A stretch of 63,617 nucleotides of DNA, the filler included, from Folioceros fuciformis (taxonomy: Eukaryota), in the NCBI GenBank assembly GCA_049999805.1. It is 19 parts of 19 records of this genome, joined end to end, with 100 filler letters (N's around TTAATTAATTAA, not from the genome) between each part and the next. Parts side by side here need not be neighbours in the genome. Positions count along the whole stretch, not along the records: positions 19,516 to 22,531 come from JBNGIO010006542.1; 18 more parts are not named here. One strand, 5' to 3'. The position numbers were made by a program, and so were the translations under genes. The notes below the pieces were generated by a model. It made no database searches. It was not told where the DNA came from and was given only the letters and a program-made list of their open reading frames with translations. Positions within the stretch are counted from its first letter, which is position 1, and every line of letters begins with the position of its first letter. Shown here piece by piece: positions 2,949 to 36,100 of this stretch.

Positions 2949-2949
2949 T

Positions 2950-5093: not shown

Positions 5094-5861
5094 ATGTCAA
5101 GGAAGGCCAGCACACGTGTCGAGCAAGAGGAGAAGAAAGAAGTATCACAGCCCAAAGGATCCAAGAACAAGCTGCCCAGAAACAGGAAGGCAGGTCCTGG
5201 GCTTCTCATGGCATCTAAGGACGAGGCTGCACAGGTAGGGGTAGGGGATGTTGCCCACCATGGTTTGAGTTTGGAGCATCCCTTTGCTAAAGCTGAATTC
5301 GAAATCGAGAATGCCCCGCTTGCTGAGAGTACCGGTCCCAAGAAGCACGGGAAAAAGAGGAGGATGAATGAAGACATGCAGGATGATGGCGCTTTGCATC
5401 GCCAGATTAGACGAAGGGGTGTAGAAGCACCTGGCAATGATAACGAATGCGTAGTGGACCTTGTTGAACATGTTCGGGCAGAGAATGAAGTTGTTTTCAG
5501 AGCGTTGTGTGGAGACGAGAATATGTGGGATTGCAAACAAAGTTACATTAGGACTGGTGGCCAAGTTGTTTTCAGAGCGTTGTGTGGAGACGAGAATATG
5601 TCGGATTGCAAACAAAGTCACATTAGGACTGGTGGCAACTGGGAGCTGATTGATATGGAGATGGGTGATTCTGAGCCCAAAACACGGCATATGGACAGGG
5701 GACCGGGTTCTTCGTCTTTTGTTGCAGAGCAGGCGAGTTTGACGTTGTGTGAAGGTGGTGGTGAGCGGGATGTGGTCCCCGGTGTCTCGGAAGGCACAGG
5801 TCTAAAAGGAGATGCTGCAGCTTCGGCTAGTCTGATGAATGAAAAAGCCGCAGGTCCTGCC
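5094..5861 (+). CDS. Low-complexity protein with degenerate AT-hook-like motif, partial, unknown function
   Basis: 256 open codons to the contig end; SQPKGSKNKLP resembles GRPKGSKNK. Ends in LMNEKAAGPA, the repeat family seen in contigs 2, 3 and 4. Confidence 0.45.
5488..5636 (+). repeat. 75-bp in-frame tandem duplication
   Basis: VVFRALCGDENMxDCKQSxIRTGG occurs twice. Confidence 0.95.
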
Positions 5862-5961: not shown

Positions 5962-6796
5962 GAGCCAGTACTGGTGATGTCCAAGGCCAGCATTTGGATG
6001 TCCCTTTGGAGGGGTGCAGAGAAGGAGATTCGACATCCCCAGCCAATCTGATGAATGGGGAAGCTGCGGGTGCTCATGTGAGGATTCCTCGGCGTCGTGG
6101 TCGACCCAAGGCACTAGGGGCCCCGTCCGGAGCCAGTACGGGGAATGTCGAAGGCCAGAATTTGGATAGTCCCAAGGCAGTAGAGGAAGCGGCCGGAGCC
6201 ACTGGGGATGTCGAAGGCCAGCGTTTGGATGCCCCCTTGAAGGAGTGCACCAGAGGTTCTGAAGGGGCTGCCACAGCCATCCCGGGGAATGCAGACGCCG
6301 CAGCTGCTGCGACGACGATTCCCCGGCGCTGTGGTTCACCCGAAGGGTCCAGGAACAAATCCAAATCAATCGGGGAACTCGCCGGGGCACTGGTATGTCA
6401 AGGGCCAACATTTGTTTAGTCCGAAGGCTATATGTAGGGGAACCCGGCGGGGCCACTGGTGATGTCGAAGGGCAGCATTTGGAGATAGTTGGAAGGCTGG
6501 AGGGGAACTCGCCGCAGGCACTGGTGATGTCGAAGGGCAGCATTTGGATAGTTGGAAGGCTGGAGGGGGACTCGCCGCAGGCACTGGTAATGTCGAAGGG
6601 CAGCGTTTGGATAGGCCGAAGACACAAGTGGAACCCGTCGGAGGCACTGGTGATGTCGAAGAGGCCAGCGTTGGGATATCCGCTTGAAGAAAGTCTTCTC
6701 CCCTTCAGGAGTTTACCCTTGAACTGGGCTGATCTGGTTCTTGAAGCTCAGGGAGGTATGACCGCCAGAGTAGGGACGGGTATGTATTCATTGTAG
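5962..6796 (+). pseudogene. Repeat-rich AT-hook-like coding remnant (second copy 7681-8515)
   Basis: RIPRRRGRPK and RRCGSPEGSRNKSK motifs; recurring ACTGGTGATGTCGAAGG(G/C)CAGC unit (TGDVEGQ); in-frame stop at 6417-6419 and a later frameshift. Confidence 0.5.
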
Positions 6797-7229
6797 TCAT
6801 TAGCACATCATTGCTCGATCACGTTCTATCGTGATACCCCTGTCCCATCTGTCTCTGAACGTCCGCAACATCTGAGATGAAGGTTTCGGCATACATACTA
6901 ACCACAATGCTACCGGCAAATACATCTGTCTTTGCAAAACTCCAGCCAGCGACCGTGCAGCATGTACTTGCTTCCCATTCTGCAGCAACTCTCGTTCCCC
7001 GTCTTTTCCACGTCCAGAGACGGTCTGGTAGGCTCGCCTGCATGCGCCGGGTTTTTTACAAGCCTTGTCCACAATCGATGCATGCTCAGGGGAAATAATT
7101 TGTTCAGCCCCACATGAACTTCAGCCCTTCTCCGGAACCAGGACTCAGATGGAAACCACTCACAAACGAGTTTCGTTCATGCCGCTCCATTTCAAATCTT
7201 CCTGACAGCCACTCCACCGGGTATCACCG

Positions 7230-7580
7230 CAATTGCGGGACAGATATCGACACCCACGAGAGTGTGAAAGCAACAGTTCACCTATGCTTCGTCCGTTTTC
7301 ACAAAGCTTTCGGCACAGTACGTGGGCACAAACTGTGGGAGGTCCTGGAGGAAATTGGGGCATAAGGCATGTAATACGGGCAGCCCAACCGCCATACCAA
7401 TACCATGCACTGCGCGCGGAAGTAGGAGGATAGAACAGGGCCAATATAAGGCACTGGTGGGGTCAGAAAACGGTGCCCGTTGAGCTTTCTCTGTTCTGCC
7501 TCTATGTACAACGATCACACCGGCATCTGGAACAGATGCAGGGCACGCACACTGCTGATTGAGGGGATCACAACATATCA
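7230..7580 (+). mobile_element. Degenerate non-LTR retrotransposon RT fragment (second copy 8949-9299)
   Basis: HLCFVRFHKAFGTV..HKLWEVL resembles FVDFxKAFDxV; GVRKRCPLS/LFCLYV resembles GVRQGCPLSPxLF. Confidence 0.75.
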
Positions 7581-9399
7581 NNNNNNNNNNNNNNNNNNNN
7601 NNNNNNNNNNNNNNNNNNNNNNNNTTAATTAATTAANNNNNNNNNNNNNNNNNNNNNNNNNNNNNNNNNNNNNNNNNNNNGAGCCAGTACTGGTGATGTC
7701 CAAGGCCAGCATTTGGATGTCCCTTTGGAGGGGTGCAGAGAAGGAGATTCGACATCCCCAGCCAATCTGATGAATGGGGAAGCTGCGGGTGCTCATGTGA
7801 GGATTCCTCGGCGTCGTGGTCGACCCAAGGCACTAGGGGCCCCGTCCGGAGCCAGTACGGGGAATGTCGAAGGCCAGAATTTGGATAGTCCCAAGGCAGT
7901 AGAGGAAGCGGCCGGAGCCACTGGGGATGTCGAAGGCCAGCGTTTGGATGCCCCCTTGAAGGTGTGCACCAGAGGTTCTGAAGGGGCTGCCACAGCCATC
8001 CCGGGGAATGCAGACGCCGCAGCTGCTGCGACGACGATTCCCCGGCGCTGTGGTTCACCCGAAGGGTCCAGGAACAAACCCAAATCAATCGGGGAACTCA
8101 CCGGGGCACTGGTATGTCAAGGGCCAACATTTGTTTAGTCCGAAGGCTATATGTAGGGGAACCCGGCGGGGCCACTGGTGATGTCGAAGGGCAGCATTTG
8201 GAGATAGTTGGAAGGCTGGAGGGGAACTCGCCGCAGGCACTGGTGATGTCGAAGGGCAGCATTTGGATAGTTGGAAGGCTGGAGGGGGACTCGCCGCAGG
8301 CACGGGTAATGTCGAAGGGCAGCGTTTGGATAGGCCGAAGACACAAGTGGAACCCGTCGGAGGCACTGGTGATGTCGAAGAGGCCAGCGTTGGGATATCC
8401 GCTTGAAGAAAGTCTTCTCCCCTTCAGGAGTTTACCCTTGAACTGGGCTGATCTGGTTCTTGAAGCTCAGGGAGGTATGACCGCCAGAGTAGGGACGGCT
8501 ATGTATTCATTGTAGTCATTAGCACATCATTGCTCGATCACGTTCTATCGTGATACCCCTGTCCCATCTGTGTCTGAACGTCCGCAACATCTGAGATGAA
8601 GGGTTCGGCATACATACTAACCACAATGCTACCGGCAAATACATCTGTCTTTGCAAAACTCCAGCCAGCGACTGTGCAGCATGTACTTGCTTCCCATTCT
8701 GCAGCAACTCTCGTTCCCCGTCTTTTCCACGTCCAGAGACGGTCTGGTAGGCTCGCCTGCATGCGCCGGGTTTTTTCCAAGCCTTGTCCACAATCGATGC
8801 ATGCTCAGGGGAAATAATTCGTTCAGCCCCACATGAACTTCCGCCCTTCTCCGGAACCAGGACTCAGATGGAAACCACTCACAAACGAGTTTCGTTCATG
8901 CCGCTCCATTTCAAATCTTCCTGACAGCCACTCCACCGGGTATCACCGCAATTGCGGGACAGATATCGACACCCACGAGAGTGTGAAAGCAACAGTTCAC
9001 CTATGCTTCGTCCGGTTTCACAAAGCTTTCGGCACAGTGCCTGGGCACAAACTGTGGGAGGTCCTGGAGGAAATTGGGGCATAAGGCATGTAATACGGGC
9101 AGCCCAACCGCCATACCAATACCATGCACTGCGCGCGGAAGTAGGAGGAGAGAACAGGGCCAATATAAGGCACTGGTGGGGTCAGAAAACGGTGCCCGTT
9201 GAGCTTTCTCTGTTCTGCCTCTATGTACAACGATCACACCGGCATCTGGAATAGATGCAGGGCACGCACACTGCTGATTGAGGGGATCACAACATATCAN
9301 NNNNNNNNNNNNNNNNNNNNNNNNNNNNNNNNNNNNNNNNNNNTTAATTAATTAANNNNNNNNNNNNNNNNNNNNNNNNNNNNNNNNNNNNNNNNNNNN

Positions 9400-10935
9400 G
9401 GCCTGAAATGTATCTGACCCTTGGCCTTTATACCGCCGTGGTCCATTATAGACATCGACAACTTTCCAAACATCGAGTACAGTGAGCCCAGATATCGAGT
9501 GTTCGCCAAGAAATCAGACATAGTGGATTCCACACTTCGATCATGTGCTCGTAAGTTCACAAAGCCTCAACTCAAAGCTCACGGATGTAATATTGAGTTG
9601 CATGTCGTTCCGAGTTTTTAGTTTGGGCTAGGTTAATCGTCTAGTGGATGGCTAACAAGCGGCATGACTCTCAGCCATAATTGTTGAGGAGCAGATCGTT
9701 GGGACTCAGAAGGTCTCTTGGAAGTCAGGACGAGCTCTGGGAGAACCTGGTGTGCTTGCAGATTACTTGATTCTCAAGTCAGGGATGACGGCCTTGAGAC
9801 CCATCCACCACCGTCCTCAACAGGATGTCATGATCCATGTAAGTCTGCCCAATGGCATATTTCCAGTCATCCAGACAACGTTCTCTTACGATTGGTCCGT
9901 GATCTTGGATCTCGCTGACGATGTGGTTTTCGTGTTTCCCGTTCAGATGGAACCCAAGGTGGTTGCTCTCAGAGACGAGTGAGTATACGAGACTTGCTGT
10001 TGAGACGTGCTCATCTATGCTCAGGGAGTACCGTTATGCATTGAAGACGGTTGCAGGTACGGCATCTGGTTCATGTCGCATTTGCTCCTCTTGGGGTACA
10101 TCGGAATAATGGTGGCATCTCCGATTTCACACAACACGGACTTCCTCTTTGCAGCACAGCTTTTGAAAAAGGAGGAGATTTCAGCTGCAGAAGTTCAAGA
10201 CATTTTTCAGCCAGCTCCGGAGCTTGCTAGTAAGGCCTGCTGTGACGTCCAGAAGCTTCCCCTTCCTTTATTCCCTGAACTGCTGACTATTGAGTGTAGA
10301 AGTGTGTGAAGACGAAGATTGAGTGTAGAAGTGTGTGTGAAGACGAAGATTGAAGATGTGTATGAGGAGAATGTGTGAGTGAGCTGAGAAGAGAAGGAGA
10401 GAAGGGCGGCCAAGCACTTAACGCTATGCGAGGTGTGAGGCAAGAGGAGAAGTATGGCTGATCACTGAACGCGGTGCGAGGTGAGGGGTAGGAGATTGAG
10501 ATTGAGGAGAAGAACTAACTGCAACTAACTAAAGAAGATTATTGAGAGATTGAGGAAGATTGTGAAAGATTGCGGGAGATTGTTGCAAGATTTTTGGGCG
10601 TTTGTGGGAGATTGGGGAAAATTGCTAAGGGATTGCAGGAGATTTGTGGACATTGCTAGAAGATTGGAGACATTTGGAATTAGCTTCGTGAGAAACGAGT
10701 GTGAACCAAAGCTCTTGTATGTGTTTGCATGTGGAGAGTCTTGCATGTGTGGCTGATTCACGGGGTGTTGTTTCCCAAGGATTGGCATTTGCATATGTGG
10801 AGGGCATCCAATAAGGCCAAATCTGCGAGTCTGGAAGCCCTTGAGGCAAAAACCCTTGGTGGTGCATGCGCGGGAAAAATATTAGTTAGAATTTTGGGTG
10901 GGTCCCACCATGGCCGTGGAAACAAACTACCGGTC
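9400..10935 (-). mobile_element. Longer paralog of the LTR-like sequence at 1-985
   Basis: 9442-9700 matches 1-250 and 10238-10935 matches 251-985. About 0.55 kb extra lies between, holding a decayed minus-strand frame. Confidence 0.7.
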
Positions 10936-11080
10936 CACAGCTCCAGCCAATCTGATGAATGAAGAAGCCGCAGGTGCTGCNNNNNNNNNNNNNNNNNNNN
11001 NNNNNNNNNNNNNNNNNNNNNNNNTTAATTAATTAANNNNNNNNNNNNNNNNNNNNNNNNNNNNNNNNNNNNNNNNNNNN

Positions 11081-14000
11081 GACAGGTTCAGGTCTTGGAG
11101 GTCGGTGATCTGTGCGATGCTGGCGGGGATAGAGCCCGAGAACTTGTTGTAAGACAGGTCCAGGATGTTCAGCCCCTTCAGATCACCCACAGACGGAGCG
11201 ATCGGTTCCCGTCAACCCATTTCGCGCCAGTACCAGGCCAGAGGTGGCGGACAAGGCGTATTGAATATCCCTGAGGAAGGCAAGTTTTCCACAACATAGT
11301 AGTCCAAGGAGTAGAGAAGGGCTCCGGCAGTGTAGGATGCTGCGCCGCCCGCGACTGCCAAGCCACTGAAGCCTTGCACCAGCTGCTGGAGTGGCAGATT
11401 ACCTCCGAGGTCGTTGCTGGCGAGGTCCAAAATTTTGATGCTGTCGCTCAAACTGCTCAAGGACGCCGGCACGCTGCCAGAGATGTTGTTGAAGCTCAAG
11501 TCCAGAACTTGAAGGCCCTGAGATGCACCTTCCGGAGTGAGGGGTTGTTCACACTGACGTCGAACAAAATTGACTGTTCGCACTTAGCTTTTTCAAATGG
11601 AAGAAAGGAGAAGAGGGCCTGGGGGAGATGGGTACCGTGAAGGAGGTGATGGCAACAGGAATCTGGCCGGTCAGAAAGTTCCCGCTCACATCGCAGACCA
11701 GCAGGGAAGAACAGGATGTGAAGTCCACTCCGCTAGGCAGAACGGACCCTGTGAGCTTGTTGTTTTCCAGAACGAGAGCCTGCAGACTCAAACAGGTAGC
11801 ACTGAAGTCGGGGATGGCACCTTCCAATTTGCTGTTTCCCAGATTCAGAACCTGCAAGGACTGGGCGTTTGTGAACAGGGAAGCAGGGATGGAGCCGCTG
11901 AGCAGATTGTTGGACAGGTCGATGTCGCCGAACGGACTGTTGCTGGCTGTAGTTGCGGGGATGGCTCCCGTCAGTTTGTTGTTGCTCAGAATGAAGAAGT
12001 TAATGGACTGGCTGCCGAAGGAGTCGGAGGGGGATGACACCGCTGAGCTGGTTGTCTGCGAAGTTGAGTCCGCGTAGAAATGGACCTCCCCCAAGGCCGA
12101 CGGGGATGGAGCCTGTGAATTGATTCTGGTGCAGATCCAGGTAGGAGAGTGGAAAGATTTGAGTAAAAGCCTGGGGAATCGTCCCTTTCAATGCATTCAC
12201 CGAGGCGTTAAAGTAGCTCGTGGACATCCGGGTGCCGTCGAATGCAGGCAGCTGAGTGAGGTGGTTGTCGGATATGTCGATGGTGAAGGAGTTCATCTGG
12301 AACACCCATGCAGGCACAGGACCTGCGAGAGCCGGGAACTATATCATCACACTATGTCCTCAGGTCAAGCGATGCATGCGTTTCCTTTAAGTTTCCAAAA
12401 GCAAGAAGCCTGACAGACAAAGAAACCGGCAGACCATTTGACTCGTGCTTGACAACACACCTGTCAACTGGTTGGAGTGCACATCAAAGTCCTCCACACC
12501 CACTCCTGTGACGCCGCCACCAGGAATGCTCTCAGTGTCCAAGCTGGTGAGCTTGTTGTTGCTGAGTGTGAGATGTCTGAACCCCCATAGTGACTTCGGG
12601 TTCAGGGCTCCCGTGAGCTGGTTGTAGGACAGGTCAAGGTAGCGGTCAGCTTCGGAGATAGCGAACCCGAGGTCTTGCGGAATGTCACCAGTCAGCTGGT
12701 TTTGGGACACGTTCAGCAGGGCCAGGTGCAGCTGGGACAGCGAGGGAGGAATTGCTCCTGCGTTAAACCCATTTTGGTATCCAACTTTCTTGTAAGCTTT
12801 CAGCAAGTTGCGGGAAAACAAAAAGATGACGGGCAGATAGATGTGATGCAATGTCCTTGACTTGCGATACCTGTGAGGTCATTGTTGCCGGCGGCAAAGG
12901 TGAGCAGCGGCTTGCCAGCGCCTCCAAGAGATGCAGGAATGGGTCCGCTCAATTTGTTGTTATCCAAGGCGAGGTTGACAAGAAGTCCGCTTGCTCCCAG
13001 AGTAGATGGAATAGGTCCAGTGAGCTGGTTGTCGCTAAGCAACAGATCTGTCACCAGCAACCTGGTGAAAGACGAGGGAATGCTGCCGGAGAAGGATGCT
13101 CCTCGGAGAACCAGCACCTGAACGTCCGGGAAAGACAAAGGAAAGGAATTCATGCCCTCCATCAGGATACTCCTCCCATGGGACAATCCAAGAGACATCA
13201 ACTCCAGCACAGTCTGCAATGCTAGTGATGATGAGATGGCACAATGTAGAAAGAAGGAGAAGATAGTACCTGCAATTTGGGAAGCAATCCGAGAGAGGCA
13301 GGGATGGGTCCTCCCAGCGGGCTCCTTCGGAACAACCCGTCGATATCATACAAGCCTCCGATCCGCAATTCCTTGAGGGAAACAAGGTTCCCGAACGACG
13401 CAGGGATGGAGCCGGTGAAGTTGTTCCCCTCCAAGTAGAGTTTCTCCAACAACGGAAGCTCCCCAGGGTTGATGAGCGGAAGAGCGCCGGTGAGCCCGGC
13501 ATTGGTCAGCGTCAATGCGTCGATGTTGAAGGGCCCGGTGAGCAGCAACTCCCGAAGGTTCTTGAGCTGCTTCAGCCCGGCGGGAATCCTCCCGTTGAAG
13601 CCGGTGGACTGCAAGTCAAGCACCTGGAGCTGCGTGAACTGCGCGAAGCAGGCCGGGATGGCGCTGGCCTTACTGCCGTCTCCAAACCCGATGCCGGATA
13701 GGTCCAGCGTCTGCAGGTTCCTGAGCTTGCACAGGGACTGCGGCAGCGGGAGCGAGATGTAGGAGCTCCCTTCGAACGACAAATGCTGTAAGGACGCTAT
13801 GTTCCCAATGTCGGCCGAGACGGGCCCCTTGAGATCGGCTTCTATCAACGACAGCACCTGGAGGGTCTTGATGGCGCTCAGGCCCGTCGGGGTGACGTCG
13901 TGCAGCAGGAAATTGGTGAGATTGAGCACCCGCAGCGCCAGGAGATTCTTCAGCGTGGTGCCTACCAGGTTGGCCGAATTCGGGTTCCCGTACTTGCTAT

Positions 14001-14131
14001 GCACGCTGCCGCAGAGCTCCTCGTCGCACTCTTCGTCGATCACCGCCTGGAATGTCACATTCACCACCTGCCCCGTGTCGTCGCAGGTGACCCCCTCGAA
14101 TGAGCAGCAGTTCCCGCTGCTGTTCCATGTC
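11081..14131 (-). pseudogene. Extracellular plant LRR protein (PGIP/RLP-like), gene body with introns
   Basis: Many LxxLxLxxNxLxGxIP repeats. GT-AG introns near 13269-13119, 12870-12760, 12460-12323 and 11635-11575. Frameshifts near 12030, 11530 and 11205-11240. Confidence 0.85.
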
Positions 14132-14231
14132 NNNNNNNNNNNNNNNNNNNNNNNNNNNNNNNNNNNNNNNNNNNNTTAATTAATTAANNNNNNNNNNNNN
14201 NNNNNNNNNNNNNNNNNNNNNNNNNNNNNNN

Positions 14232-14427
14232 AGGTGACCCCCTCGAATGAGCAGCAGTTCCCGCTGCTGTTCCATGTCGCCAGCTGCCCGCCGGTGTCCA
14301 GCAGCCCGGCCTTGAAAGCCAGCAACGCGTTCTTGTCCCGCTGCACACACACCGGGGTGGCTGCGGTACCGCCCACCAAAAGGAGCAGTAGCAGGAGCGT
14401 CACTCTCTGGAATGAAACAAGCCCCAT
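14232..14427 (-). CDS. N-terminus of the LRR gene (signal peptide and LRR N-cap)
   Basis: MGLVSFQRVTLLLLLLLVGGTAA-TPVCVQRDKNALLAFKAGL..WNSSGNCCSFEGVT; joins 14131 through an exact 47-nt overlap. Confidence 0.9.
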
Positions 14428-15267
14428 CGCGTTAGGCTTTGGACCGTTACCGCCCACGAACACCTCTCCGGGAGTCCTGAACGGATCGAAATGGGCGGGG
14501 ATGAAAGGTGGGGCGGAGAGTGGGGATGGGAGCACTGATCGGATGAGATGGAGAATGCGCTGGGCACCCTGAGCTGAGATGTGGAGTTGCCTGCTATATA
14601 CCCGGGGTGGAAGCTTCAAAGGAAGGACCCACCACCAGATGAGACCTCTGTGGTGCCGTGGTATGCGTTGTCCGGATTCAGCTGCTATCTGGGACCGCTC
14701 TGTGGCCGGAAGCCCGGCGCCGGGTTCGGGTCAAGAGGGAAGGCCACTGGACAGTGCCGCAGTTGAGTCCCGCCCACAACCCACGCCAGGACACCACCAC
14801 AGCGTCGTATGGACCACCTTTGCCCTTCCATTCTAGGCTGGCAGGTCCTGGTAACTTTGACTGAAAGGAGTTCTTCTCGGGATCCTGGCAGGGCACATCT
14901 CCAGCTATAGCAAGCGTGTTATTAGGATAAGTGCTAGTGGATAGTGGAGAGGCAAGCGTGCCGGTCTCCTCTTGACTACTGGGTAGCCATTTCATGAAAG
15001 AGCAACGGCCGTCCATGGATGAGCACCAGGGGTGGACAGCGCATCACCTGCATCTGATTTCCTTTCCGTCAGTAGAACTTTCTGGGGGATACAAGCAGCC
15101 TAAAGCTCTCGGAGCACCGACAACGCACCTACTGTACCTGTCTACCCAACACGAGGATGGGACTCGACTTTCATGCCCCACCACGTCCACCTGTGCAGTA
15201 TTATCTTTTGACTGCAGCCTGTCTTCCACTATCCTTGGGCTGCCGATGTCCTGTACCAGCCCTTCCC

Positions 15268-15460
15268 AATCTTGTAGCTTCCTGTTGCGACATGCCCAGC
15301 TCGTAGCATCCTGTTGCAGCTCACACGCCAACTCCATCCCGTTGCTGCAAGATCTTGTAGCTTTCCTGTTGCGATATGCCCATCCAGTAGCACCCTTTTG
15401 CATCCCATCCTCATTTTCCACTCACCCTGTGGCTGCAAGAGCTTGTAACTCCCTGTTGCT
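15268..15460 (+). repeat. Degenerate 30/60-bp tandem repeat
   Basis: Recurring CTTGTAGCTTCCTGTTGCGA.ATGCCCA / GTAGCA.CC.TGTTGCA. Confidence 0.7.
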
Positions 15461-17984
15461 TCCAAGTTCCCACCCTTGAAAAAATGCAATACTGCTTTCC
15501 CTATAGTACTGTATCCTGTGAAGATGATGAGCGTCCCGGACCCCACGCCCAGGTGACTGGGCGCATCTTGTTTTTTTGTCCAAGCTGCCATGATTCCAAC
15601 ACGTTCACAAAACTGTGGTGTCACCAGAAGCAGCCAAAGCATACACGTCACCACATATTTTCTAACACGAGAGCTGTGCTGTACCGCAGAAAAGCAGACA
15701 CGTGACCGCAAAGCTCTCCGATGAGAGCAAGTTCCTCAAACAATCTGCAACGCGCCGCACTTTGCGAAAGTCCATCCACCGTTACAGCAAGGACGAAAAG
15801 ACATGACCGTAACGAAGGTCACAAAGCAGATCGAGGAACCTGTTTCTATACCATAGTGAGAGTCGAGAGTGAGGTCGGATCCGCCGCATCATTCCGATGC
15901 ATCGTCCCGGGTGCCGGTGCTCCCCACCTGCTACCGGGAGCGTGATGGTACATCCTGTGTATATCCTGCTGGAGGCTTATCGGGAGCTAGTGACACAGGG
16001 TAGCCTTGATGTTCGTCTGGGGCCATCTTTTGGGAGCAAGCGTTGAATTCACATCAGCTACGGAGATCAACTTACCAGGCTGGAACAAGCAAGGGAAAGC
16101 ATCCAAATCGGGCACAAGCTGTTGTCGGAGATTCTGGCTGGCCTCGAGATGACGTACGTGCTTTCCGTTCCGTGTTCCAGTGTGCGGAATAACTGTCTCA
16201 AGGATTTGGAAACCCTAAACCTTATGCTGAACAAGACCGGTGACGCTCGGCGGACCCTGACATCGATTGAGACTTCCGATTGATCCTCGAGAGTAGAGCA
16301 CCCCGGAGACTTTTGGATGTGGGGAACCTTTTCTGACCACTGTTTGTTACGGGGGAGGGCTGAATCATGCGCAAGCCTGTCGATCCTTGTGCTAAAGGGA
16401 CAAGGATCGATTGATTCAGACGGGCATCAGGGAAGGGCACCAGATCATCAAGGTACCAGGATAGTTGTGTAATGGTGACGAGTTTGAGTTTAAATGCATC
16501 TGTAGGTGTTAATTTTGTGGTTTGTTCCTTTTAGAGTTGCTGATGTAGATTCTGACACAGTTGTCAAGATAGAGTACGTATCCTATGCCATCGACTCAAA
16601 AGAAGGCAAGAAAAATACTTCATCTAGGCAATTTGTCAGCACCCACGACAGTAGCTTTGCAAGGAGAAACCAAAAATGAGAACTTGCAGATGCTATCGAC
16701 GTCTGGAAGTGCAGATGAAAGAGATCGCTTATGGGAGGAATGGTCTCTAGTGTAACTGGTTTTCTTCCTGGCTGCTGTTAGAACCTCCATGCAGCGAAGC
16801 AAGTTCCCACGGAACAGGTATATCTTGATCGTTTAATGGGCATTGTTTTTTTCACACTGGCACGGACGGCTTATTCGAGGCTCTCTCGTTGGCCACATTT
16901 GTGGGGAACAGTTCGTGTGTGAAATGCAATCATTGCAGCTGAACCTGTGGGAGAGCTTTGCGCACTGCAACCGTACAGTCAAGCGGCACCTCGTTGTTGA
17001 GGCTCTGTCCCAGGGTATTGGTTGAGGGTCTTTCCAGGGTATTAAGGTGCCCATTACGAAAAGGCCCGGCTGTGCTATATCCGTGAGAGGAACAAGCAAT
17101 TTCTCTGGGTTGACCAGTGCATCTGAGTGTGTCAAAATTCTCTTCAATGCCTTGTCATGCTTCCCCTGCGACTGCCAAAGTTGTTTATCCAGGGTAGCCT
17201 GGCAAAGGTAGGCCATGACACCCATGAATCAGTTCTTGTATAAATTGCCACACAGCAATGTACCCTCCATGTCTGTCTATGTCCGTGATGGTTAGCTTTT
17301 TACAGCGAGCCATGCCAATGATGCAGGGTTGGCGGGCATGAAGCCATGCCGGAAGTGAAAAACACTGAGATGGTTTTGACACAAGGCAGTGATCCCGTCC
17401 TTGCTCTAACTGCCACGAATGGGCCATTTACGGATTTGGCACCAACGGTAAAGGTCTTGAACCCCCTACTGTTTAGAGGATCCTGGGATGTGATCAGTCT
17501 GGTGCTCTTGTTCTGCAACATTATGGTCAGTATACATACATGTTATATGCAGAGCAGAGAGAGAGTTATACGAGCCGGTGCTTGAGCTGGTTTTGGTAGT
17601 TCTGCCACCGGATGCAGTAGCATGCAGGCACTTCGGGAATGGAATGAGTTGTATGGTGTCAGTGTTAAACAGTGAAAGACCCTTCGCAGCCTATGACGCA
17701 GAAATGCACACTACTGTACAAGTTATGGTGTTGGTGTTAGATGGTTAAAGACCCCTCACAGCCTCGTCTATTGGAAATGCATACTAGTGCACAGACTAAG
17801 GTATTGGTGTTCGACGGTTTTCACATCAAATGTTGTTGACTATGCACAAATACCGTGGTACATATATAGCCTTTTGTTTGCGAACTTTGCATGTCAATCC
17901 CTTTGCGGCCTCTCCTGACCAGTCCGTGAAAACGGGGTCAAGGGATAACTCTGGCTTCATGAAAAGGACGACGACAAAGTCCCT

Positions 17985-18049
17985 GCACCATTTCTAACCC
18001 GCCGTGGCACGCATCGTAGATGCATGCCACAGCGGGTTAGAAATAGTGC
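17985..18049. repeat. Inverted repeat, 31-bp arms with 3-nt loop
   Basis: GCACCATTTCTAACCCGCCGTGGCACGCATC-GTA-GATGCATGCCACAGCGGGTTAGAAATAGTGC; 3 mismatches. Confidence 0.9.
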
Positions 18050-18311
18050 TGGTCATCTTTTCTTTCATACCGCTATCCCTTGGCTTCATAACATCCTGCT
18101 TCCGTACAGAAATGATATGAGCAATTCAGATTCGTCCCACCTTTTTCTTGTGTTATCTTCGTCTATGAGTGATGAATCACCTTGATTTGAAGCTTGAACC
18201 CTAGACCTTTTCTTGCCCTCAGCACGGTTGGGATTCACAAACAGGTTTTGAGGACCTTGGCTTTCCAGCTCAGTCTGAAATTGTGGCGTTCAAGCTGCGG
18301 AATAGCTAGGA

Positions 18312-18799
18312 ATTTGGAAGTGTGCTGCTACATTATCCCCGGTGTGGGTTTTTTGGAAGTGTGCTGCTACATTATCCCCGGTGTGGGTTTGAAGGAGCAA
18401 AGGACTTGCTCCCTTGCTCATGCTCAAACCTGGAGCTACACCATAAGATAAATGTTGAGATTGATACACGTTTCTGTTAGCAATGTCTTCACAGTTTGTA
18501 GCATGCTTCACACTTGATAGCAATGTCTTCACAGTTTGTAGCATGCTTCACACTTGATACCTACGAGATATGCTTGGCACATTGAATCTAATTGGAGGTC
18601 TTGCTGAAGTCGATAGTAGAACAAAAGAGTCTATTTGGACAATGCATACGGGAGTCCATTTGGACAATGTATACGGGCCCTGTCCTCAACGCTAGAACGA
18701 TTCATGTAAAGAGGGCAACTTGCAGCGGTCATGGAAATGGTAAAAAAATGGGCGATTCCTTGTCCCCATGACAAAAAAACGGGCGATTCCTTGTCCCAT
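18312..18799 (+). repeat. Cluster of four short two-copy tandem duplications
   Basis: 39 bp near 18312-18390, 40 bp near 18478-18558, about 25 bp near 18634-18677, about 31 bp near 18742-18799. Confidence 0.9.
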
Positions 18800-19256
18800 A
18801 TGACATCCAACTTGGATTGTAGATAACGTCGTTCCGTTATTTCAGACTACACCGGTTATCTCTGGGTCGAGAAATCCAAGTGTACCTAAAAATAAACCCG
18901 GCCAAAACCTCCGACGCAGAGTGCTCAGCCCGGCCGTAAACCATTAATGTTCATTGTCTTTTGTACAACGTGGCTAGAAATCCTCCGGGTACGGATCCTA
19001 CACCGTACCGCACTCCCGCACCACCTCGCTTCTGAACAGCATTAGCACTGTACACCACTGCCTCCCGCCGCGGACAAGAAATAGCAGGTGCCTGGCACAG
19101 CGCCTCCATCTTCCTCACACCGACACCATATGGCTTTGGACAAAGTTTGCCGACTCTGTCTTCGGTTGCAGTCTACTCCAAATGCAAATCCTTCAGCACT
19201 CTTACCCACAGGAAACAGAGATGGCTACAATAGCTATTCACCACGCCTATGGGGAC

Positions 19257-19415
19257 CTAGGAGCATTTCTTGGGCAGAGGAGCGCCACACAGGCCGGAGT
19301 TCCCAGCGAAATCAGCGGCCGGGAACTTGCTAAGTTGCGAGGGCATGTGGCCTGTCAACAGGTTGTAGGACAGGTTCAGGTCTTGGAGGTCGGTGATCTG
19401 TGCGATGCTGGCGGG
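19257..19415 (-). CDS. C-terminus of the LRR gene
   Basis: ..DLQDLNLSYNLLTGHMPSQLSKFPAADFAGNSGLCGAPLPKKCS-stop. C-cap with no transmembrane or kinase domain; continues from 11081 through a 47-nt overlap. Confidence 0.9.
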   Translation of the reverse strand, partial: PASIAQITDLQDLNLSYNLLTGHMPSQLSKFPAADFAGNSGLCGAPLPKKCS

Positions 19416-19515
19416 NNNNNNNNNNNNNNNNNNNNNNNNNNNNNNNNNNNNNNNNNNNNTTAATTAATTAANNNNNNNNNNNNNNNNNNNNNNNNNNNNN
19501 NNNNNNNNNNNNNNN

Positions 19516-20649
19516 CCCATGATTTGCATACCCAGCAATCAGGGACGTCCATGTCACCACATCCTTCGTGGCCAAGCTGTCAAAAACCCTGCATGCATCT
19601 TCAAGTTCGCCACATTTTGCATACATGTCCACCAGGCAGTTGCCAACAAACAAGTTCTGAGAAACACCACTGTGCAACACGTGATAGTGCACTTCTCTGC
19701 CAGATTCCAAATCCGCAGCCAAGGCACAAGCTTGCAGGGCTGCTACATACACATGAGCATCCGCCTTCACACCCGAGCGTCGCATCTGATGGTACAGTTG
19801 TATAGCGTCCCTAGGTTTCCCATGTTTAGCATGCGCAGATATTATGGAACACCACAAGAAGGCATTTGGTTTCTCCACTCTGGTGAACACATCCATCGCC
19901 TCCTCCAGTCTCCCTCCACACGCATACATGCGCACGATGTTGTTCCCCAAGTACGCACTTGACTCGTAGCCGAGTTTGACGGTGAGATGATGAACTCGAC
20001 GGCCCGCCACCAAATCTTTCTTACATGCACACAACTTCAGCACAGTATACAAGAGAGACTCCGAAACAAGACCATTTGCGTGAGCCAGACATTCCAGGGC
20101 TCCAACGGCCTCTGTAAGCTTCCCCTGCTGACATAACATGCTCACGGTTACAGCTGTTACTACGCCCATCTCGGATCCTGCACGCCTGCTACATTCCGGT
20201 GAGCTGAACTTCAAACGCGAGGCACCATATCTCATCTGCATATCCGAAGAAACGAGCTGATTATCCACCCAAGCCGGCTTAAACATGTTGTCTAACCAGA
20301 GGACCTCGCGGGCCCCCTTACGCGTGAAGTCAGGCGAACGAGAGCTCTTCTTACCTCGCCTGTTATCCCACCACATGGCAGGGTCCAGCAAGAATTGTCG
20401 CCACAAGACTTCCTTCTCCTGCTCCTGCCGCTGCTTCGGGCCCCGGACCTGGCGACCACAGTCGCTGGAAAATGCTTCCCCAGCCATCCAATTGCTCTGA
20501 AGTGCTGCGTTCCTGACACAGCCGCACCTGCACACCTGGTTGTTTGTCAGCCACTGAGTCCCTGAGTCGAGCTGAGCTCCTCGCAGAATCCCTCCACAAC
20601 CACCACTCCGTAGCGGACACAACGGCTCGGATTGCCAAACAGTGGCCAT
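19516..20649 (-). CDS. PLS-class PPR protein, N-terminal half (putative transit peptide, PDF-like motif, first PLS triplets)
   Basis: Open frame from ATG 20649 (true start uncertain). WWDNR..PDF..LWL..PAWV motif, then P-L-S repeats to the contig edge. Confidence 0.93.
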
Positions 20650-21002
20650 CTTCGACACGCCGCTCTCGGAAGATAGAGATCATAGAGCATGCCAGAAATC
20701 ACCCTTAGCAAATGCAGTGCACAACGTGTATCGATGGTCAAGTCACCAAAACGAGATCACTCGGTCCGACGATCACAACAGAGAGCATCGCGGTGCTTGG
20801 CATCGTTGTACTGAGAGCGTGAAGCATGAAGTGCGAGTGTGCACAGTTCGCTGTCTCGAGGATGGACTGGACGTCGATGGTACTCGAATTACTCCAGGGT
20901 AGTTCAACAGACGTCTTGTTGGAAGAAGACCTATTTTGTCAGATGATCAGCGGTGTTGCGTCGAGCATCCTCTGAGAACTGGCTGGCAGTCCATTTTCGC
21001 TC

Positions 21003-22531
21003 TCACGGTCGACCCTTACAACTACAACAACCAGCCGCGAATCGGTGGACACGATATCCATCCCTTACGACGATGTCTCTCTTTTCAACCCTTGACATTA
21101 TTTCGGTGGAGCTGTGGCAGTCGCTGCACATCCGTAAATTCTTGGTAACCACCAAAGGCGTGCCACTCGGAGTGTTCAAGAGACCAAAAGCCAAAGCCAG
21201 CTTCTCGGCATGCCCACAAAGTGCATCTTCCTTTTCCTTCTCAGGCACTCGCTTTAGCACCAACTTTGTGTGTGGTACGTGGCCCCCTTCCCGCTTCAGA
21301 CGTGCATTCATGCTATCAACCTCAGGCGCAATGTCCGATCTATTTTCTCCCACCAGAAATGTATGCAACTCATTATTCACCTCGATGCCCGCCACTGCAG
21401 GTTTTTTGTTAGCTCCAGCTAACATTCTCTGTGTTTCGACCCTCTCTGCATCAGTCCACATGCCAGCGTCTGCATAGGCGTGGGCCATCAGCACATAGGC
21501 GGATGCACCATCAGGGTCCAATTTAACCAGAGTTTCATAACACTGGGCCGCCCTCACTATGTCTCCATGATTTTTGCAGGCATTCAGCAATGACGTCAAA
21601 CCCACAACATTGTTGCGGCTCTCGCACGATAATAGCATGTTCTCCGCCTCATCTAAATGGCCTGCACGGCCAAGCAGATCAACCATGCTATTGTAATGGT
21701 CAATAGTGGGTTGAATGCCATGCTGTTCAACCATGGCATCAAAGTGCTTGCGTCCCTCATTTACCAGGCCCGCATGACTGCATGCTGCTAAAAGGCAAGT
21801 GAATGTGATATCATTAGGCTGAAAACCTCCGACCAACATCTCCTGGAAACAAGCCAGCGCGCTGTCACCTTCGTCAGCGGCACCATATCCAGCTATCAGG
21901 GCATTCCACGTCACCACATCCTTTGTGGTCAAGCTCTCAAAAACACAGCGTGCATCTTCCAGTTTGCCGCATTTCGCATACATGTCCACCAGGCAGTTGC
22001 CGATAATTATGTTACGCAGATGTCCTCTTTTTACAATCTGCGAGTGCAGCTGCCTGCCCTTTTGTAAGGCACCGGCACTTGCACAAGCCTTTAGTAGGCA
22101 AGCAAAAGTAACATCGTTTCCCACAATCTGGCCCTCCTGCTCCATTTGTTCATACAGAGCAAGCGCCTCTCGGCCCGAACCTTGCTGTGCATACCCCGCA
22201 ATGAGGGAATTCCATGTCACCACATCCTTTGTCGTCAAGAGATCAAAGACCCGGCGTGCGTCTTCCAATTCACCACACTTTGCATACATGTCCACAAGGC
22301 AATTGCCTATGAATATGTTATCTACCTGTCCCCTTTCCACAATTTGTGAGTGTAGCTGCCTTCCCTTCGTCAAGGCGCCCGTGCTTGCACAGGCGTTCAG
22401 AAGGCAAGCAAACGTGACATGGTTACCCACAACAAACCCCTCCTGCTCCATTTCTTCATACAGGACGAGCGCCTCTTGGCCAAACCCATGATTTGCATAC
22501 CCAGCAATCAGGGACGTCCATGTCACCACAT
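21003..22531 (-). CDS. PLS-E1-E2-DYW:KP (GRP-type) PPR protein, C-terminal half; candidate U-to-C editing factor
   Basis: KKPAVAGIEV in place of the PG box, HAEKLA..LRMCSDCH deaminase motif, terminus HRFAAGCCSCKGRP instead of DYW. Confidence 0.95.
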
Positions 22532-22631: not shown

Positions 22632-25124
22632 TGCTGTAAGACAGGAATTTTACACGTTGAAGATGAGAGAGGGGGAGAAGATGGCTGCTCACATCACCAA
22701 GTTTCGTCAACTCCGATCTCAACTCTTGAGCATGGGTACGAAAATGGATGAGTTGGATGCAGCCGCTCACCTCCTCACAACGTTGCCACCGTCGTACCAA
22801 GGCTTCATCACTACGCAGAATATTCCCTACCTGACTGCCTCAGCTGGCCGGACCTCCACCTATACAGTCGACACCCTCATCGGAGCACTGTTTCAGGAGG
22901 AACAAGCCAGGAGTCACTCATCTGGGGGCTCACGCTCCAAGGGAGACAAAATTCTGTCGGCAAGGCATACACCTAATAGAGGCAAGGGTAAGTTTCAGGG
23001 TACCCAGAAGTCTGATTCCAGTTCTGGTAACCCACCTAAGCGGACAGGGACTTGTAACTGGTGCGGGATTGCTGGGCACTGGGCCCGTGAGTGCAAGAAA
23101 AAGAGGGCTGGTGAGCCGCAGCGAACTCCTAAGAATTCGGCTAGTGTCGTTAAGGAGAAATCCAGCGACACTAAAAATGTGGTCAAGATACTTACAGTTT
23201 GCTTGACAAGTTCTTGTCTGGACATGGAAAGCTGGTACCTTGATTCTGGTGCCACGGCTCATATCTGTCGGAACAAGACTCATTTCATCTCACTGACCTT
23301 ATGTTGTGAGAACGACAAGGTGTTTCTAGGAGATGAACAACTTGACAGCAGCCTGCAAGTTAAGGGACAAGGCAAAGTTACTTTCAGACTGAAGGACGGT
23401 TCAGATCTTACTCTTGAACGCGTTTTGTACGTACCTGACATGGCTAAAAATCTGTTGTCCATGAGCCAGCTTCTCAAGCTACGGACGATTGAAATGAGAG
23501 CCACCGGTGATACGTGCACCTTCTACAGGAAGGCAGCGCCCGACATTTCTATCTTCCAGGGTTTCCTTGAAGATGATCTGTATTGCCTTGACCTCTTACC
23601 CGTTAAGACTGCCACAGTCCACAGTACTGGATTAGCTAATATGGACACCAAACAGTTGGCTATGTTATGGCATGCGAGACTGGGACATCCCAACAAACAG
23701 AAATTGTTGGACATGTCTGTTAAACAGTGTTTTAGGGAACCACTTCCCCGCTGTTTTAAGGACTTACCATCCTGCGAGGCATGCATAATAGCCAAACAAA
23801 AGGAGCACCCTTTTCCTTCCGCGCCTGCTTACAGAGCCACCTCTGTTCTAGGTCTGGTCCATGCGGACATCTCCGGACGGATACAAGTGCCCTCAATCGG
23901 TGGTTCCAATTACTATCTCACCTTGACGGACGACTACAGCCGATATACCTGGACGTTTCCCATGCAGAGAAAGAGTGACGTTCTTGAAATCTTCAAGGAA
24001 TGGCTCCCTGCAGTGCAACGTCAGACAGGTTTGTTATTGAAGTACCTGCGTACTGATAACGGGGGTGAATTCGTCAATGATGCTTTTGATGCATACCTTG
24101 CTGCGGAGGGGATCCAGCGACAGTTGACTCTTCCTTATACACCCCAGCAGAACGGGGTCTCGGAGAGGAAAAACCAGTCTTTGCTCTCTATGACGCGGAG
24201 CATGTTACTCTGGTCGGGTCTACCTCAAGTGTACTGGGCAGAGGCCATCTCTGCTGCGACGTATGTTCTGAACAGAATTCTTACGAGCTCTGTCCCGAAC
24301 CAGACTCCTTATGAGGCCCTCCATAAGAAGAAACCCAGCCTGCTGCACTTACGAGTTTTTGGCTCTCGTGCGTATGCTTTCATTCCTGCAAAGAAACGCC
24401 AGAAGTTAGACCCACGAGCTCAAGCCCTAGTTTTTGTGGGGTATAGTGAGCAGGCCAAGGCATATCGGCTGTATGACCCAACTACAAGGAAGATGTCCCT
24501 TGCACGCAGTGTCACCTTCATCGAACCTCACTCTCCATTGCTTGCTCAAGCTCCACAGACAGAGGGAGTTACGGCTGTCCCTGAGGAGACAGAGGGAGCT
24601 ACTACGTACCCTGTGCCTGAAGACCAGGTTACCCATCACATGTATCCTCAAGACACCGAACCGGCTGTGAGACTTTTGGATGCCGTTGTGGAGACTGACG
24701 CACTGCCTGCTGACCCTCCTGCAACGGAACCACTCGCTGCATTAGAAATTCAGGCGGCCCCGGATCCTGCAGCCCTAAATGCCCCTTCTTCCCCTGCTCA
24801 GGCTGACGAGGACTTCCCAGTAGTAGCCGATGAGCACGACTCAGACTTCATCGCGGATGAAGACATACCTGAGGACGTCCAACTACCAATAGTCCCTCCC
24901 GTTGAGATTACCCGTGATCCTGAAGTAGTTGCTCCTCGCCGCTCAGGACGCCACCGACCACCACCTGATCAATGGGCCGAACCACGCTATCAGTCTATTG
25001 ACTTTCGTCACCGGGCAGCCCCAGCTACTACTCACACTGCTCCATCAGCCATACCAGATGAGCCACGCACCTTGGTTGAGGCTTACAACGGACCTGATAG
25101 CAAGCAATGGTATGCGGCTGTTGA
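22632..25124 (+). mobile_element. Ty1/copia gag-pol fragment (gag, Zn knuckle, protease, integrase)
   Basis: Uninterrupted frame: CNWCGIAGHWAREC, WYLDSGATAH, WHARLGH..CEAC, DDYSRY/TDNGGE/ERKN. Clearly related to 33149-37639. Confidence 0.97.
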
Positions 25125-33148: not shown

Positions 33149-36100
33149 ATGTCCAGACTTGTTGTCCCTGATAGTGAGGATGAGGAAGACTTTGACTCTT
33201 CAGATGAGGAGGAAGGTGAGATAGACTTAGCGTCATATTTTGCTTCATCTTTTTGGCAGTATAACCCTCCTATCATACAAGTACAACACCCTCTACCAGT
33301 CACACAGGTTGTTAGAGCAATGGCAACCCCATCTTTCACATCAGACCTTAAGGAAAAAGACAGGTTTAATGGAACCAAGTACCCAGTCTGGAGGGTGCGT
33401 ATGAAGGCCATTCTGATTGCACGGGGTTGCTGGAGTGTTGTGGATGGTTCCTTCCCAGAGCCAGATCCCATCACTGGTTCTCAAGCTGACAAGGAGAAGT
33501 GGGCCTCCATTAATGAAGTGGCTGTTGCAGTTCTCATCAATGGATTGGCCACAGACCTTGTACCTGATGTGGAATACCTGACAAAAGGCATTCAAATATG
33601 GAATCAGCTCGAGAAGACGTATCAGGTCATCAACATCATGACTAAATGCGCAGTCTGGCAGGAATACTATGCTTTGCGAATGAAGGAAGGAGACAAAGTT
33701 GGAGTTTTTACCAGCAAATTTCGTCACCTCCGGTCGCAACTTGCTTCCTTCAACATAAAGATCGAGGAGGAACATGCTGTTGTCCAATTGCTAAGCAGTC
33801 TCCCAGCCACCCTCCAGCAGTTTGTCAGTTCTTACAATGGACCACTGAATGCATCTCAAGCTGCGGTAACTGCTGGGACTGCCAGTACATTGACAGTGGA
33901 TGACATAGTTGCTGCCCTGCATCAAGAGGAGCAGAGTAGACTGTTTTCCGTTGGTGGATCTAAGCCCAAAGCAGAAAAAGTCCTAGCTGCAAGGTTTAAA
34001 CCAATTAGGCAAAAAGGCAAGGCTCACCCTCAGGGGTACAGTGAGCCTGGGCAATCTTCTATCACGAAGAAAACAGGAAATTGTAACTGGTGTGGTATCC
34101 CAGGGCACTGGGCTCGCGACTGCCGGAAGAAAAAGGCAGGAGAACCCCAGAAAAAGGCTTCCACTAATGTTGTTGTTAAGGAGAAAGGCTCGAGTGACCA
34201 CTCGGCACCTACAGACAACAAAGGAACGGTTAGAATATATACTATTTGCCTTTCCAATTCCAAGCACGATAGGGACAGTTGGTACTTGGACTCAGGTGCA
34301 ACTGCTCACATTTGCAAAGACAAGGATTTGTTCTCATACCTGGACACTTCTCATACGGTTGAGAAGGTGTTGCTTGGGGATGAGAAAAATGAAACTGGCC
34401 TCCGCATTGAAGGACAGGGTAAATGTACCTTCATTCTGCATGACAGAACTGACCTGGTTTTGGAAGATGTTCTGTATGTACCCAGGATGGCCAAGAACCT
34501 TGTGTCTTTGAGTCGATTGCTTGGTACGAGGGCATACAGCATGTTTGCAGACCAAAGCTCCTGTTCCTTTTACACTACCACTGTTCCATACAGATTAGTG
34601 TTTAAAGGAATTCCAGACAGTGACCTGTATTGTCTTGACATCCATTGTAAGCCTGAAACTGTTACTTTGTCAACAACCCCAGGTCAGATGGATACAAAAG
34701 CCCTAGCTTCCCTTGGGCACGCCAGATTAGGTCATGCCAATAGGGCTAAGCTAATCGATATGTCGGTTAAGGACTGTTACAGAGAGCCCTTACCACAGTG
34801 CTTCAAGGACTTGCCTATTTGTGAGGCTTGCATCCTGGCGAAGCAGAAGGAGCAGTCATTCCCCACCACACCTGCACACAGAGCCAGCCACGTCTTAGAG
34901 TTAATACATGCGGATATCTCAGGAAAAATACATGAGCCGTCACTTGGGGACTCTAGATATTACCTCTCTTTTACAGATGATTTCAGTCGTTATTCCTGGA
35001 CCTTCCCCATGCAACTTAAGAGTGACACCTTTCGACTGTTTACTGAATGGCTTCCTGTAGTGCAACGTCAAACAGGACAGTTGGTCAAATGGCTGCGGAC
35101 TGACAACGGCACGGAATTTGTGAATGCCCAGTTTGATTCCTACCTACAAGGGCATGGAATTCAGCGTCAGTTGACAGTCCCCTACACCCCTCAACATAAT
35201 GGAGTTGCTGAGCGGAAGAATCAAACCTTGCTCGGCATGACACGCAGTATGCTCCTCTGGGCTGGTCTTCCTCAGGGATACTGGGCAGAGGCTGTTGTAA
35301 CTGCTACTTACATCCTTAATAGGGTGTACACAAGTGCTGTGAAGGGTCAAACACCTTATGAGGTCTTCTGGAAGCGTAAGCCTAGCATTCTTCACCTTCG
35401 TGTTTTTGGTTCTCGAGCCTTTGCCTATATACCTGCCGAAAAGAGGAGGAAATTAGACAATAGGGCTCAGGGTCTTATTTTCGTCGGATATAGTGAAACT
35501 GCTAAGGCCTACAAGCTCTATGACAAGCACAGGCACTCCATAATGTTGGCACGAAGTGTTACCTTTTTGGAACCTCATGCACCTGTCGGCGAGCCAGCCT
35601 CAAAGGTAGTTACTGCAGAAGCAGAGGGAGTTGACGACGATGCAGACACAGATGCTCATGCTCCTGGAGACTATCCACAGGATGACACTGAAGCGCTCGA
35701 TGATGACCTCCTTCGACCTGTCCCTGATGTTCAGGCACCACCAGATGAGTTGATTCAGGCTGGTGATCAGCAAGATGCGCCTCCTGTTGAGGGATCCATG
35801 GATATTCTAATTCTACACCAGGGTAATGAGAACGTTGACCAAGGCCCTTACCTGGATGAGCACGAGGTCGAAGACATATCCGAACCTGCAGACCCATCAC
35901 TTGTTGACGAGACAGATGCAATAGGTCCACCTGAGCCAGAGCTTCGACGTTCTGCAAGACATAGGCTAGAGAGGTCAGCATGGAAGGAGCTACCATATCA
36001 ATCCATTGATTTCAGGCACTCCTCCTCAGCAGTCACAGTCCCTTTACCTGATGAGCCCAAGACCTTATCCCAAGCTTTCAATGGTCCAGAATCTGCACAA

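Follow-up and report, generated by a model that had tools for sequence, protein, structure and literature searches.

The contig at positions 19516–22531 of a 63,617-nt window of the Folioceros fuciformis assembly GCA_049999805.1 (the window being the whole stretch of DNA that was analysed) carries coding sequence for candidate U-to-C RNA-editing factors, namely pentatricopeptide repeat (PPR) proteins of the PLS class with a GRP-type DYW:KP domain. On balance, the contig probably represents two adjacent paralogous genes of this type that share one exact 47-mer, in which case the 874-aa open reading frame (ORF) obtained by closing its two identical ends is a virtual chimaera. The contig is 3,016 nt long and is one of 19 contigs of 1.1–6.4 kb in the window, which are joined by N44-TTAATTAATTAA-N44 spacers.

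On this two-gene reading, the contig would be a single edge of the assembly graph that leaves and re-enters the same 47-mer node, placed where a P1 motif begins and conservation within the PLS array is highest, and the underlying DNA would be two neighbouring head-to-tail paralogs at about single-copy depth. The upstream gene (X) would be visible from that P1 motif to its GRP stop, followed by a spacer of 344 nt; the downstream gene (Y) would be visible from its start, through a presumed transit peptide, a PDF-type motif and six PPR motifs, to the same 47-mer. What is lacking here, the 5′ portion of X and the 3′ portion of Y, would lie on other graph edges, and the closed 874-aa ORF would combine the head of Y with the tail of X.

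Terminal identity and the assembly graph

Comparing the contig ends letter by letter, we found that the first 47 nt (19516–19562) are identical to the last 47 nt (22485–22531) and that no longer prefix equals a suffix, which leaves a unit of 2,969 nt; the 47-nt identity reported in the first-pass annotation of this DNA is therefore exact. A match of this length is far beyond chance, yet it is systematic rather than biological. The contig at 40513–45856 likewise overlaps itself by exactly 47 nt, the pairs 11081–14131/14232–19415 and 45957–51831/51932–56192 show mutual overlaps of exactly 47 nt at both ends of each, and in the 99% identical pair 5962–7580/7681–9299 the last 47 nt are common, with the final mismatch directly before them. 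Among the 19 contigs, the same length thus recurs in one other self-overlap, in four inter-contig overlaps and in the shared ends of the 99% identical pair. Because it recurs at other contig ends of the record, 47 nt is the overlap length of the assembler, and the contigs are edges of a k=47 de Bruijn graph. The terminal identity of 19516–22531 equals the overlap length used throughout the assembly, which makes this contig a self-loop edge, with both of its ends on a single 47-mer node.

A self-loop edge has two possible origins: an unbranched cycle (a circle, or an array with pruned flanks), or a linear arrangement of the form flank-(47mer-L)n-47mer-flank, which would require the 47-mer to be the sole exact repeat of at least k bases. 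The node sits in the most conserved PPR motif, at the P1 start (on the minus strand, VVTWTSLIAGYANHG) of the PLS array. Contigs reported as circular on the basis of a k-long overlap (self-loop or cyclic edges of de Bruijn graphs) resemble this one in that the terminal identity here equals the overlap length at the other contig ends of the record. For plasmids, viruses and organelles such contigs are true circles, whereas here depth and context point to a nuclear repeat node. A general caution follows for annotation from sequence alone, in that identical contig ends as long as the k of the assembler are no evidence of circularity.

Adjacency and depth in public runs

Three runs of one organism (X1 and X2, both of DNA, and X3), representing two samples and two studies, contain 64–81% of the sampled words of the contig, and their k=31 contigs provide the evidence used here; no exact pieces are listed for 19516–19626, 21189–21261 and 21997–22201 in some runs. 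Contigs of 675 nt (X1), 830 nt (X2) and 831 nt (X3) cover 20514/20359–21188 with zero differences; they begin within the N-terminal ORF, cross the spacer and reach into the DYW domain. As the spacer is thus crossed in full by independent contigs of three runs, the two ORFs do lie head to tail, about 350 nt apart. A mis-join inside the spacer was considered and rejected, since three independent k=31 assemblies cross it.

At 20359–21188, the 831-nt contig of X3 crosses the spacer with a depth no different from that of the coding parts. That X3 is RNA is only a guess, and we did not use its spacer contig as evidence of transcription; if X3 is RNA, continuous transcription would cover both ORFs. 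Among the runs listed as containing words of the contig, none is on record as RNA.

Exact-match contigs have depths of 6.4–11.3 in X1 (8 listed pieces), 10.4–16.1 in X2 (8 pieces) and 7.5–12.7 in X3 (5 exact pieces), and the bins of unique sequence in the spacer have depths of 6.4, 11.3 and 11.3. Variants carried by one paralogous contig each have depths of 8.4–12.9 in 5 of 8 rows in X1 (19, 67.5 and 67.5 in the other three) and of 9.3–17.1 in most rows in X2. As the exact-piece depths match those of single paralogous contigs, the unit is no more abundant than single PPR paralogs, and a high copy number is not supported. The depth comparison proposed in the first-pass annotation thus gave no sign of many copies (6.4–16.1, as for single paralogs), and depth at a multiple of the single-copy value, as expected of an array, was not found, although both results, being contig k-mer depths without a single-copy baseline, are weak evidence.

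Within the contig, the node occupies the most repeated sequence. The summed depth of look-alike contigs in the bins at 19516–19717 is 7,000–22,000 across X1–X3, compared with 6.4–11.3 in the unique spacer, and 1,840–2,498 contigs per run of the same organism fit parts of the contig at ≥90%. A 114-nt k=31 contig of X1 matches over its full length at 22401–22514 and ends exactly 30 nt (k−1) into the 47-mer, a pattern characteristic of branching at the left boundary of the 47-mer; we estimate at about 2% the chance that the arbitrary start of an unbranched loop would coincide with such a contig end. The k=31 contigs stop at 22514 (X1) or 4 nt past 22531 (X3), and among the pieces listed (the junction listing leaves out 208 joints and 1,070 loose ends), no contig links the N-terminal part with the C-terminal part by way of the 47-mer or spans the whole stretch.

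Alternative arrangements

Several observations weigh against two adjacent paralogs. Contig k-mer depths without a single-copy baseline are not copy numbers, and one copy and two copies are inseparable by them. A 135-nt contig of X3 that starts at 22401 does not stop at the left boundary but includes the entire 47-mer and the next 4 letters. A self-loop overlap of exactly k calls for a shared match of exactly 47 nt, which by our estimate applies to about 10–15% of runs of at least 47 nt at 85–90% identity, whereas an unbranched cycle yields an overlap of k automatically; we estimate, in turn, at about 6–8% the chance that the arbitrary start of an unbranched contig would hit one of the few VVTW-type motif sites. 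Contigs of the record that have a common end 47-mer stand side by side, and no other window contig has the target 47-mer; the postulated other edges may fall below the apparent 1-kb length cut-off or lie outside the window. Finally, the closed ORF is perfectly in frame, with 15 motifs and the architecture of an 828-aa relative (P0107).

The same in-frame closure speaks for a perfect tandem duplication, flank-(47mer-L)n-47mer-flank with n≥2, in which at least one complete 874-aa gene would lie between two partial or variant copies and which could have arisen by unequal recombination between identical 47-nt P1 segments. Closure gives a plausible 15-motif PLS-E1-E2-DYW:KP protein with a complete N terminus, two relatives of the same architecture (P0005, 950 aa; P0107, 828 aa) both have a PDF-type N terminus, the proteins P0038 and P0050 are the closest to both halves among the matches listed, and the graph topology is identical to that for n=1. 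Depth in the three runs is that of single paralogous contigs, however, with no sign of a doubling, and because the assembly separates variants that diverge by 1%, the copies would have to be identical over 2,969 nt. We consider this duplication unlikely. Very improbable is an extrachromosomal 2,969-bp circle with one editor gene, assembled as an unbranched cyclic unitig. In its favour, the terminal overlap is exactly k, which is also seen at other contigs of the record, and no neighbouring window contig has the node; but the depth is not above that of single nuclear paralogs and is alike in the three runs of the two studies, a branch at the node is suggested by the k=31 contig end at 22514, the other cycles of the record include ordinary nuclear repeats (two copia-type ORFs and a leucine-rich repeat (LRR) ORF are in the window), and nothing on the unit serves replication or mobility. 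Either arrangement, a perfect array of several copies or a circle, could be reconciled with single-copy depth only by special pleading. It is also quite unlikely that an unlinked paralog, or graph simplification (for example, pruned low-coverage flanks), is all that closes the loop, which would make the contig silent on what follows the 47-mer in either gene. This would accord with the thousands of look-alike PPR contigs per run and with paralogs identical to the 47-mer over at least 36 nt, as loose ends at 19527/22496 show in X3 and X1; furthermore, two contigs of the record have a common 282-nt prefix, so the contigs have undergone some path resolution and cannot be pure unitigs. Closure of this kind differs from two adjacent paralogs only in the location of the other edges, and predicts the same data.

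Overall, the compact tandem array or circle of editor genes proposed in the first-pass annotation is not supported: 47 nt is the assembler overlap, depth is that of single paralogs and the junction is not bridged by any listed contig. The best fit is the outcome that the annotation itself had set against its proposal, two adjacent paralogs with depth near 1–2×, yet this is not proven. PPR genes make up about 7.9% of Anthoceros angustus genes according to PMC7027989, and PMC13386178 gives 1,583–2,308 PPR genes for each of four hornworts. Because PPR genes are so numerous in hornworts, neighbouring PPR genes on the same strand are expected by chance at many loci.

It is doubtful that the loop is real, that is, that it consists of at least two identical head-to-tail copies of an 874-aa editor gene, or of an excised 2,969-bp circle, formed by very recent unequal recombination between the 47-nt P1 segments of neighbouring PPR genes. 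If it is, it would be PLS-triplet shuffling caught in the act, yielding editing factors of new RNA specificity. An array or circle, if true, would also show copying and recombination of PLS-class editors in lineages that have thousands of them, and would place a tandem or recombinational route beside the retroposition favoured in PMC13386178, in which the PLS expansion of hornworts is ascribed mainly to dispersed duplication with retroposition. The 47-nt direct repeat that flanks 2.9 kb is a possible substrate for unequal exchange and is compatible with the recombination idea; the origin of new specificities by recombination between PLS triplets is a conjecture. Tandem PPR clusters have in common with the contig adjacent paralogous PPR genes that are open to unequal recombination, which shuffles repeats. 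In angiosperms, restorer-of-fertility-like clusters are tandem, large and diverged arrays of P-class genes, whereas in the contig only two neighbours are in evidence. A retroposed copy with a poly(A) tail was considered and rejected, as no poly(A) tract or A-run follows the GRP stop in the spacer.

Gene content and protein architecture

Both gene parts are on the minus strand. The C-terminal part (gene X, if there are two genes) occupies 21003–22529 and encodes 508 aa plus a stop, is open at the contig edge, and comprises nine PPR motifs, E1, E2 and the DYW:KP domain. By hand segmentation, its motif order is P1 L1 S1 P1 L1 S1 P2 L2 S2; the triplets are also visible as a 306-nt period at 21884–22531 (2.1 copies, 79% matches). 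The E1 and E2 motifs, of 34 aa each, are at 21405–21608 and are followed by the 133-aa DYW:KP deaminase-like domain at 21006–21404, with a KPAVA box, HAE, Lys at position 88, CSDCH and a GRP end, and by the stop codon at 21003–21005. The spacer (20659–21002) measures, from the GRP stop, 344 nt if the next ORF is taken to start at a GTG (20658) and 353 nt if it is taken to start at its first ATG (20649), confirming the earlier observation that the next start follows the minus-strand stop at 21003 by about 350 bp. The N-terminal part (gene Y, if there are two genes) occupies 19516–20658 (381 aa), with a complete 5′ end, an in-frame stop 8 codons upstream of the GTG, and an open end at the contig edge. 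Its first six PPR motifs (P-like, L1, S1, P1, L1, S1) and 15 aa of the next P1 are at 19516–20163. No replication or mobility function was found on the 2,969-nt unit by ORF and Pfam scans.

Closing the overlap by script gave an uninterrupted in-frame ORF of 874 aa (871 aa from the ATG), with 15 PPR motifs, E1, E2 and the 133-aa DYW:KP domain. The intronless ORF of about 870 aa with 15 repeats described in the first-pass annotation is thus reproduced in its content, although it is best read as a virtual chimaera. Pfam matches are PPR (6.3e-59) and PPR_2 (3.5e-54) in the C-terminal part and PPR (7.3e-22) in the N-terminal part; in the 508-aa ORF, E_motif matches at residues 321–383 (3.4e-08, 34 bits against a cut-off of 27.3) and DYW_deaminase PF14432 at 4.5e-33. 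The complete hand-segmented PPR motifs (9 + 6) are 31–36 aa long. Residues 5/last of the P and S motifs are N/N, C/D and N/D in the N-terminal part, followed by T/N, N/D, N/N, N/D, N/N and N/N. Read with the PPR code, these fifth and last residues suggest a target rich in pyrimidines; should the two halves come from different genes, the residues must not be read as one string.

Family assignment and predicted function

Sequence features support the assignment of the gene type to PLS-class PPR proteins that carry E1, E2 and a GRP-variant DYW:KP domain, because of the Pfam PPR, E_motif and DYW_deaminase matches, the alignment to solved DYW domains, and the KPAVA, HAE, K88, CSDCH and GRP residues. 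In phmmer comparisons with solved DYW domains, the C-terminal domain matched 9kfx (8e-39), 7w86 (7e-30) and 7o4e (5.5e-29), with HAE in place of HSE, CSDCH in place of CGDCH, and a KP box reading KKPAVAGIEV where a PG-type protein has KEPGCSWIEV, followed by a short deletion. As aligned, the differences between the domain and the PG type fall exactly on the DYW:KP-defining positions, given in PMC9478123 as KP for PG, Ala for Ser in HxE, and a non-DYW C-terminal triplet (GRP or DRH in hornworts). Residue 88, counted from the K of KP without alignment to KP6 and on the assumption of the numbering used in PMC11845758, is the K of TKNLRMC. All of the sequence features of a PLS-class PPR-DYW:KP protein of the GRP variant were found: a P/L/S array, E1/E2, the HxE(x)nCxxC zinc site, the KP box and Lys88.

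The identity given in the first-pass annotation (a candidate U-to-C editor with PLS repeats, E1, E2 and DYW:KP, marked by KPAVA, HAE, CSDC and GRP) is upheld by Pfam, by the phmmer alignment and by the residues as read. Its background statements, that DYW:KP domains are linked to U-to-C editing and that GRP endings occur in hornworts, agree with PMC9478123 and PMC11845758, both of which make the link, and with PMC9478123, which lists GRP as one of two hornwort DYW:KP variants. Hornwort PPR-DYW:KP proteins of the GRP variant (Gerke et al. 2020, cited in PMC9478123) were the source of the designer proteins KP2 and KP3. The known proteins and the contig have in common PLS triplets, P2-L2-S2, E1, E2, the 133-aa domain, KP, HAE, CxDCH, Lys88 and GRP, and we found no feature by which the genes of the contig depart from this family.

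By analogy with the family, each gene would encode a predicted organelle-targeted PLS-class PPR protein that is imported into the plastid or mitochondrion, where the P and S motifs of the PLS array would read a specific RNA sequence. The GRP-type DYW:KP domain, through its HAE...CSDCH zinc site and a Lys88-dependent reaction, would then convert a specific U to C in a plastid or mitochondrial transcript. According to PMC11845758, Lys88 of the 132/133-aa DYW:KP domain is indispensable to U-to-C editing by designer KP proteins. We infer the editing function of the contig genes from family membership, whereas the domain content and the catalytic residues can be read directly. With the contig, a family already familiar in hornworts gains one or two natural GRP-type DYW:KP genes, which is ordinary for a hornwort-type genome. 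Natural members are nevertheless of practical interest because U-to-C activity, as stated in PMC11845758, has so far been demonstrated for consensus designer proteins only and not for natural ones.

Homologues

Homology searches with both halves returned 501 and 7,852 matches, of which we considered the best 120 of each, ranked by summed repeat scores, a ranking that may hide short near-identical fragments. Among the matches listed, the closest have 55–61% identity, and several end in GRP. The closest to both halves were P0038 and P0050, with 58% and 56% identity to the N-terminal part and 61% and 58% to the C-terminal part, respectively; among the same listed matches, named lycophyte and fern proteins reached ≤51%. 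None of the matches listed is a near-identical full-length protein that shows what follows the 47-mer. The 828-aa P0107 has the same 15-motif architecture as the closed ORF, and P0005 (950 aa) shares it. An exact look-up of the two partial proteins (three start variants) in the protein collection gave no match, none of 448 candidates from a comparison of the N-terminal 175 aa with longer proteins reached E≤1e-5, and an exact 49-nt spacer word had 0 matches in metagenome_contigs.

An N-terminal PDF-type motif

The N-terminal part contains, at 20224–20445 on the minus strand (residues ~72–145), a PDF-type motif as defined in PMC6963530, including the Pro-Asp-Phe signature; this motif is found in the plant OSB single-stranded-DNA-binding (SSB) proteins (PMC6963530). 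Pfam found 0 families in the N-terminal 175 aa. Against 1.84 billion representatives, phmmer returned 482 matches at E≤1e-3 and 84 at E≤1e-10, many of them with 2–13 repeats of the motif. Half of the 12 chosen matches that we scanned are PPR proteins with the motif near the N terminus (6, of which 2 have DYW domains), three have an SSB/OB fold (OSB-like; one below the Pfam cut-off) and three have no family. PPR proteins with the motif near the N terminus occur in further relatives and, among named species, in a moss (Sphagnum compactum), a lycophyte (Diphasiastrum complanatum) and two ferns (Adiantum capillus-veneris and Ceratopteris richardii), and a multi-repeat PDF-motif protein occurs in the dinoflagellate Effrenium voratum.

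OSB proteins have a repeated C-terminal PDF motif together with an SSB/OB fold, whereas the contig gene has a single copy, at the N terminus of a PPR editing factor and without an OB fold. A literature search that combined the PDF motif or OSB with PPR found no description of a PDF–PPR fusion in the library searched, and a 2026 survey of OSB proteins makes no mention of PPR. An N-terminal PDF-type motif in PPR editing factors of several non-seed plant lineages may deserve a separate look.

Other contigs of the window

The DNA of the window is plant nuclear DNA. Copia-type long terminal repeat (LTR) retrotransposon polyproteins (gag, integrase and RVT_2) are encoded at 22657–25124 and 33149–37639, the latter as an intact ORF of 1,496 aa; apart from these, the other contigs hold the LRR ORF and sequence that cannot be annotated. 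The other self-overlapping contig (40513–45856, 5,344 nt) has internal direct repeats of 1,083 nt (92.7%) and 478 nt (86.6%) and no ORF of at least 220 aa. The two contig pairs with mutual 47-nt overlaps form two-edge graph cycles, and the LRR ORF (13222–14067) is in the first pair. The contigs at 5962–7580 and 7681–9299 are both 1,619 nt long, differ by 16 mismatches and have the first 282 and the last 47 nt in common; they are allelic or repeat variants that the assembler kept separate. Segments at 1–988 and 9442–10935 are common to the contigs at 1–5861 and 9400–10980 with ~91–92% identity, which indicates a dispersed repeat family. A 63-nt tandem repeat of about 4.9 copies is present in both of the 1,619-nt contigs.

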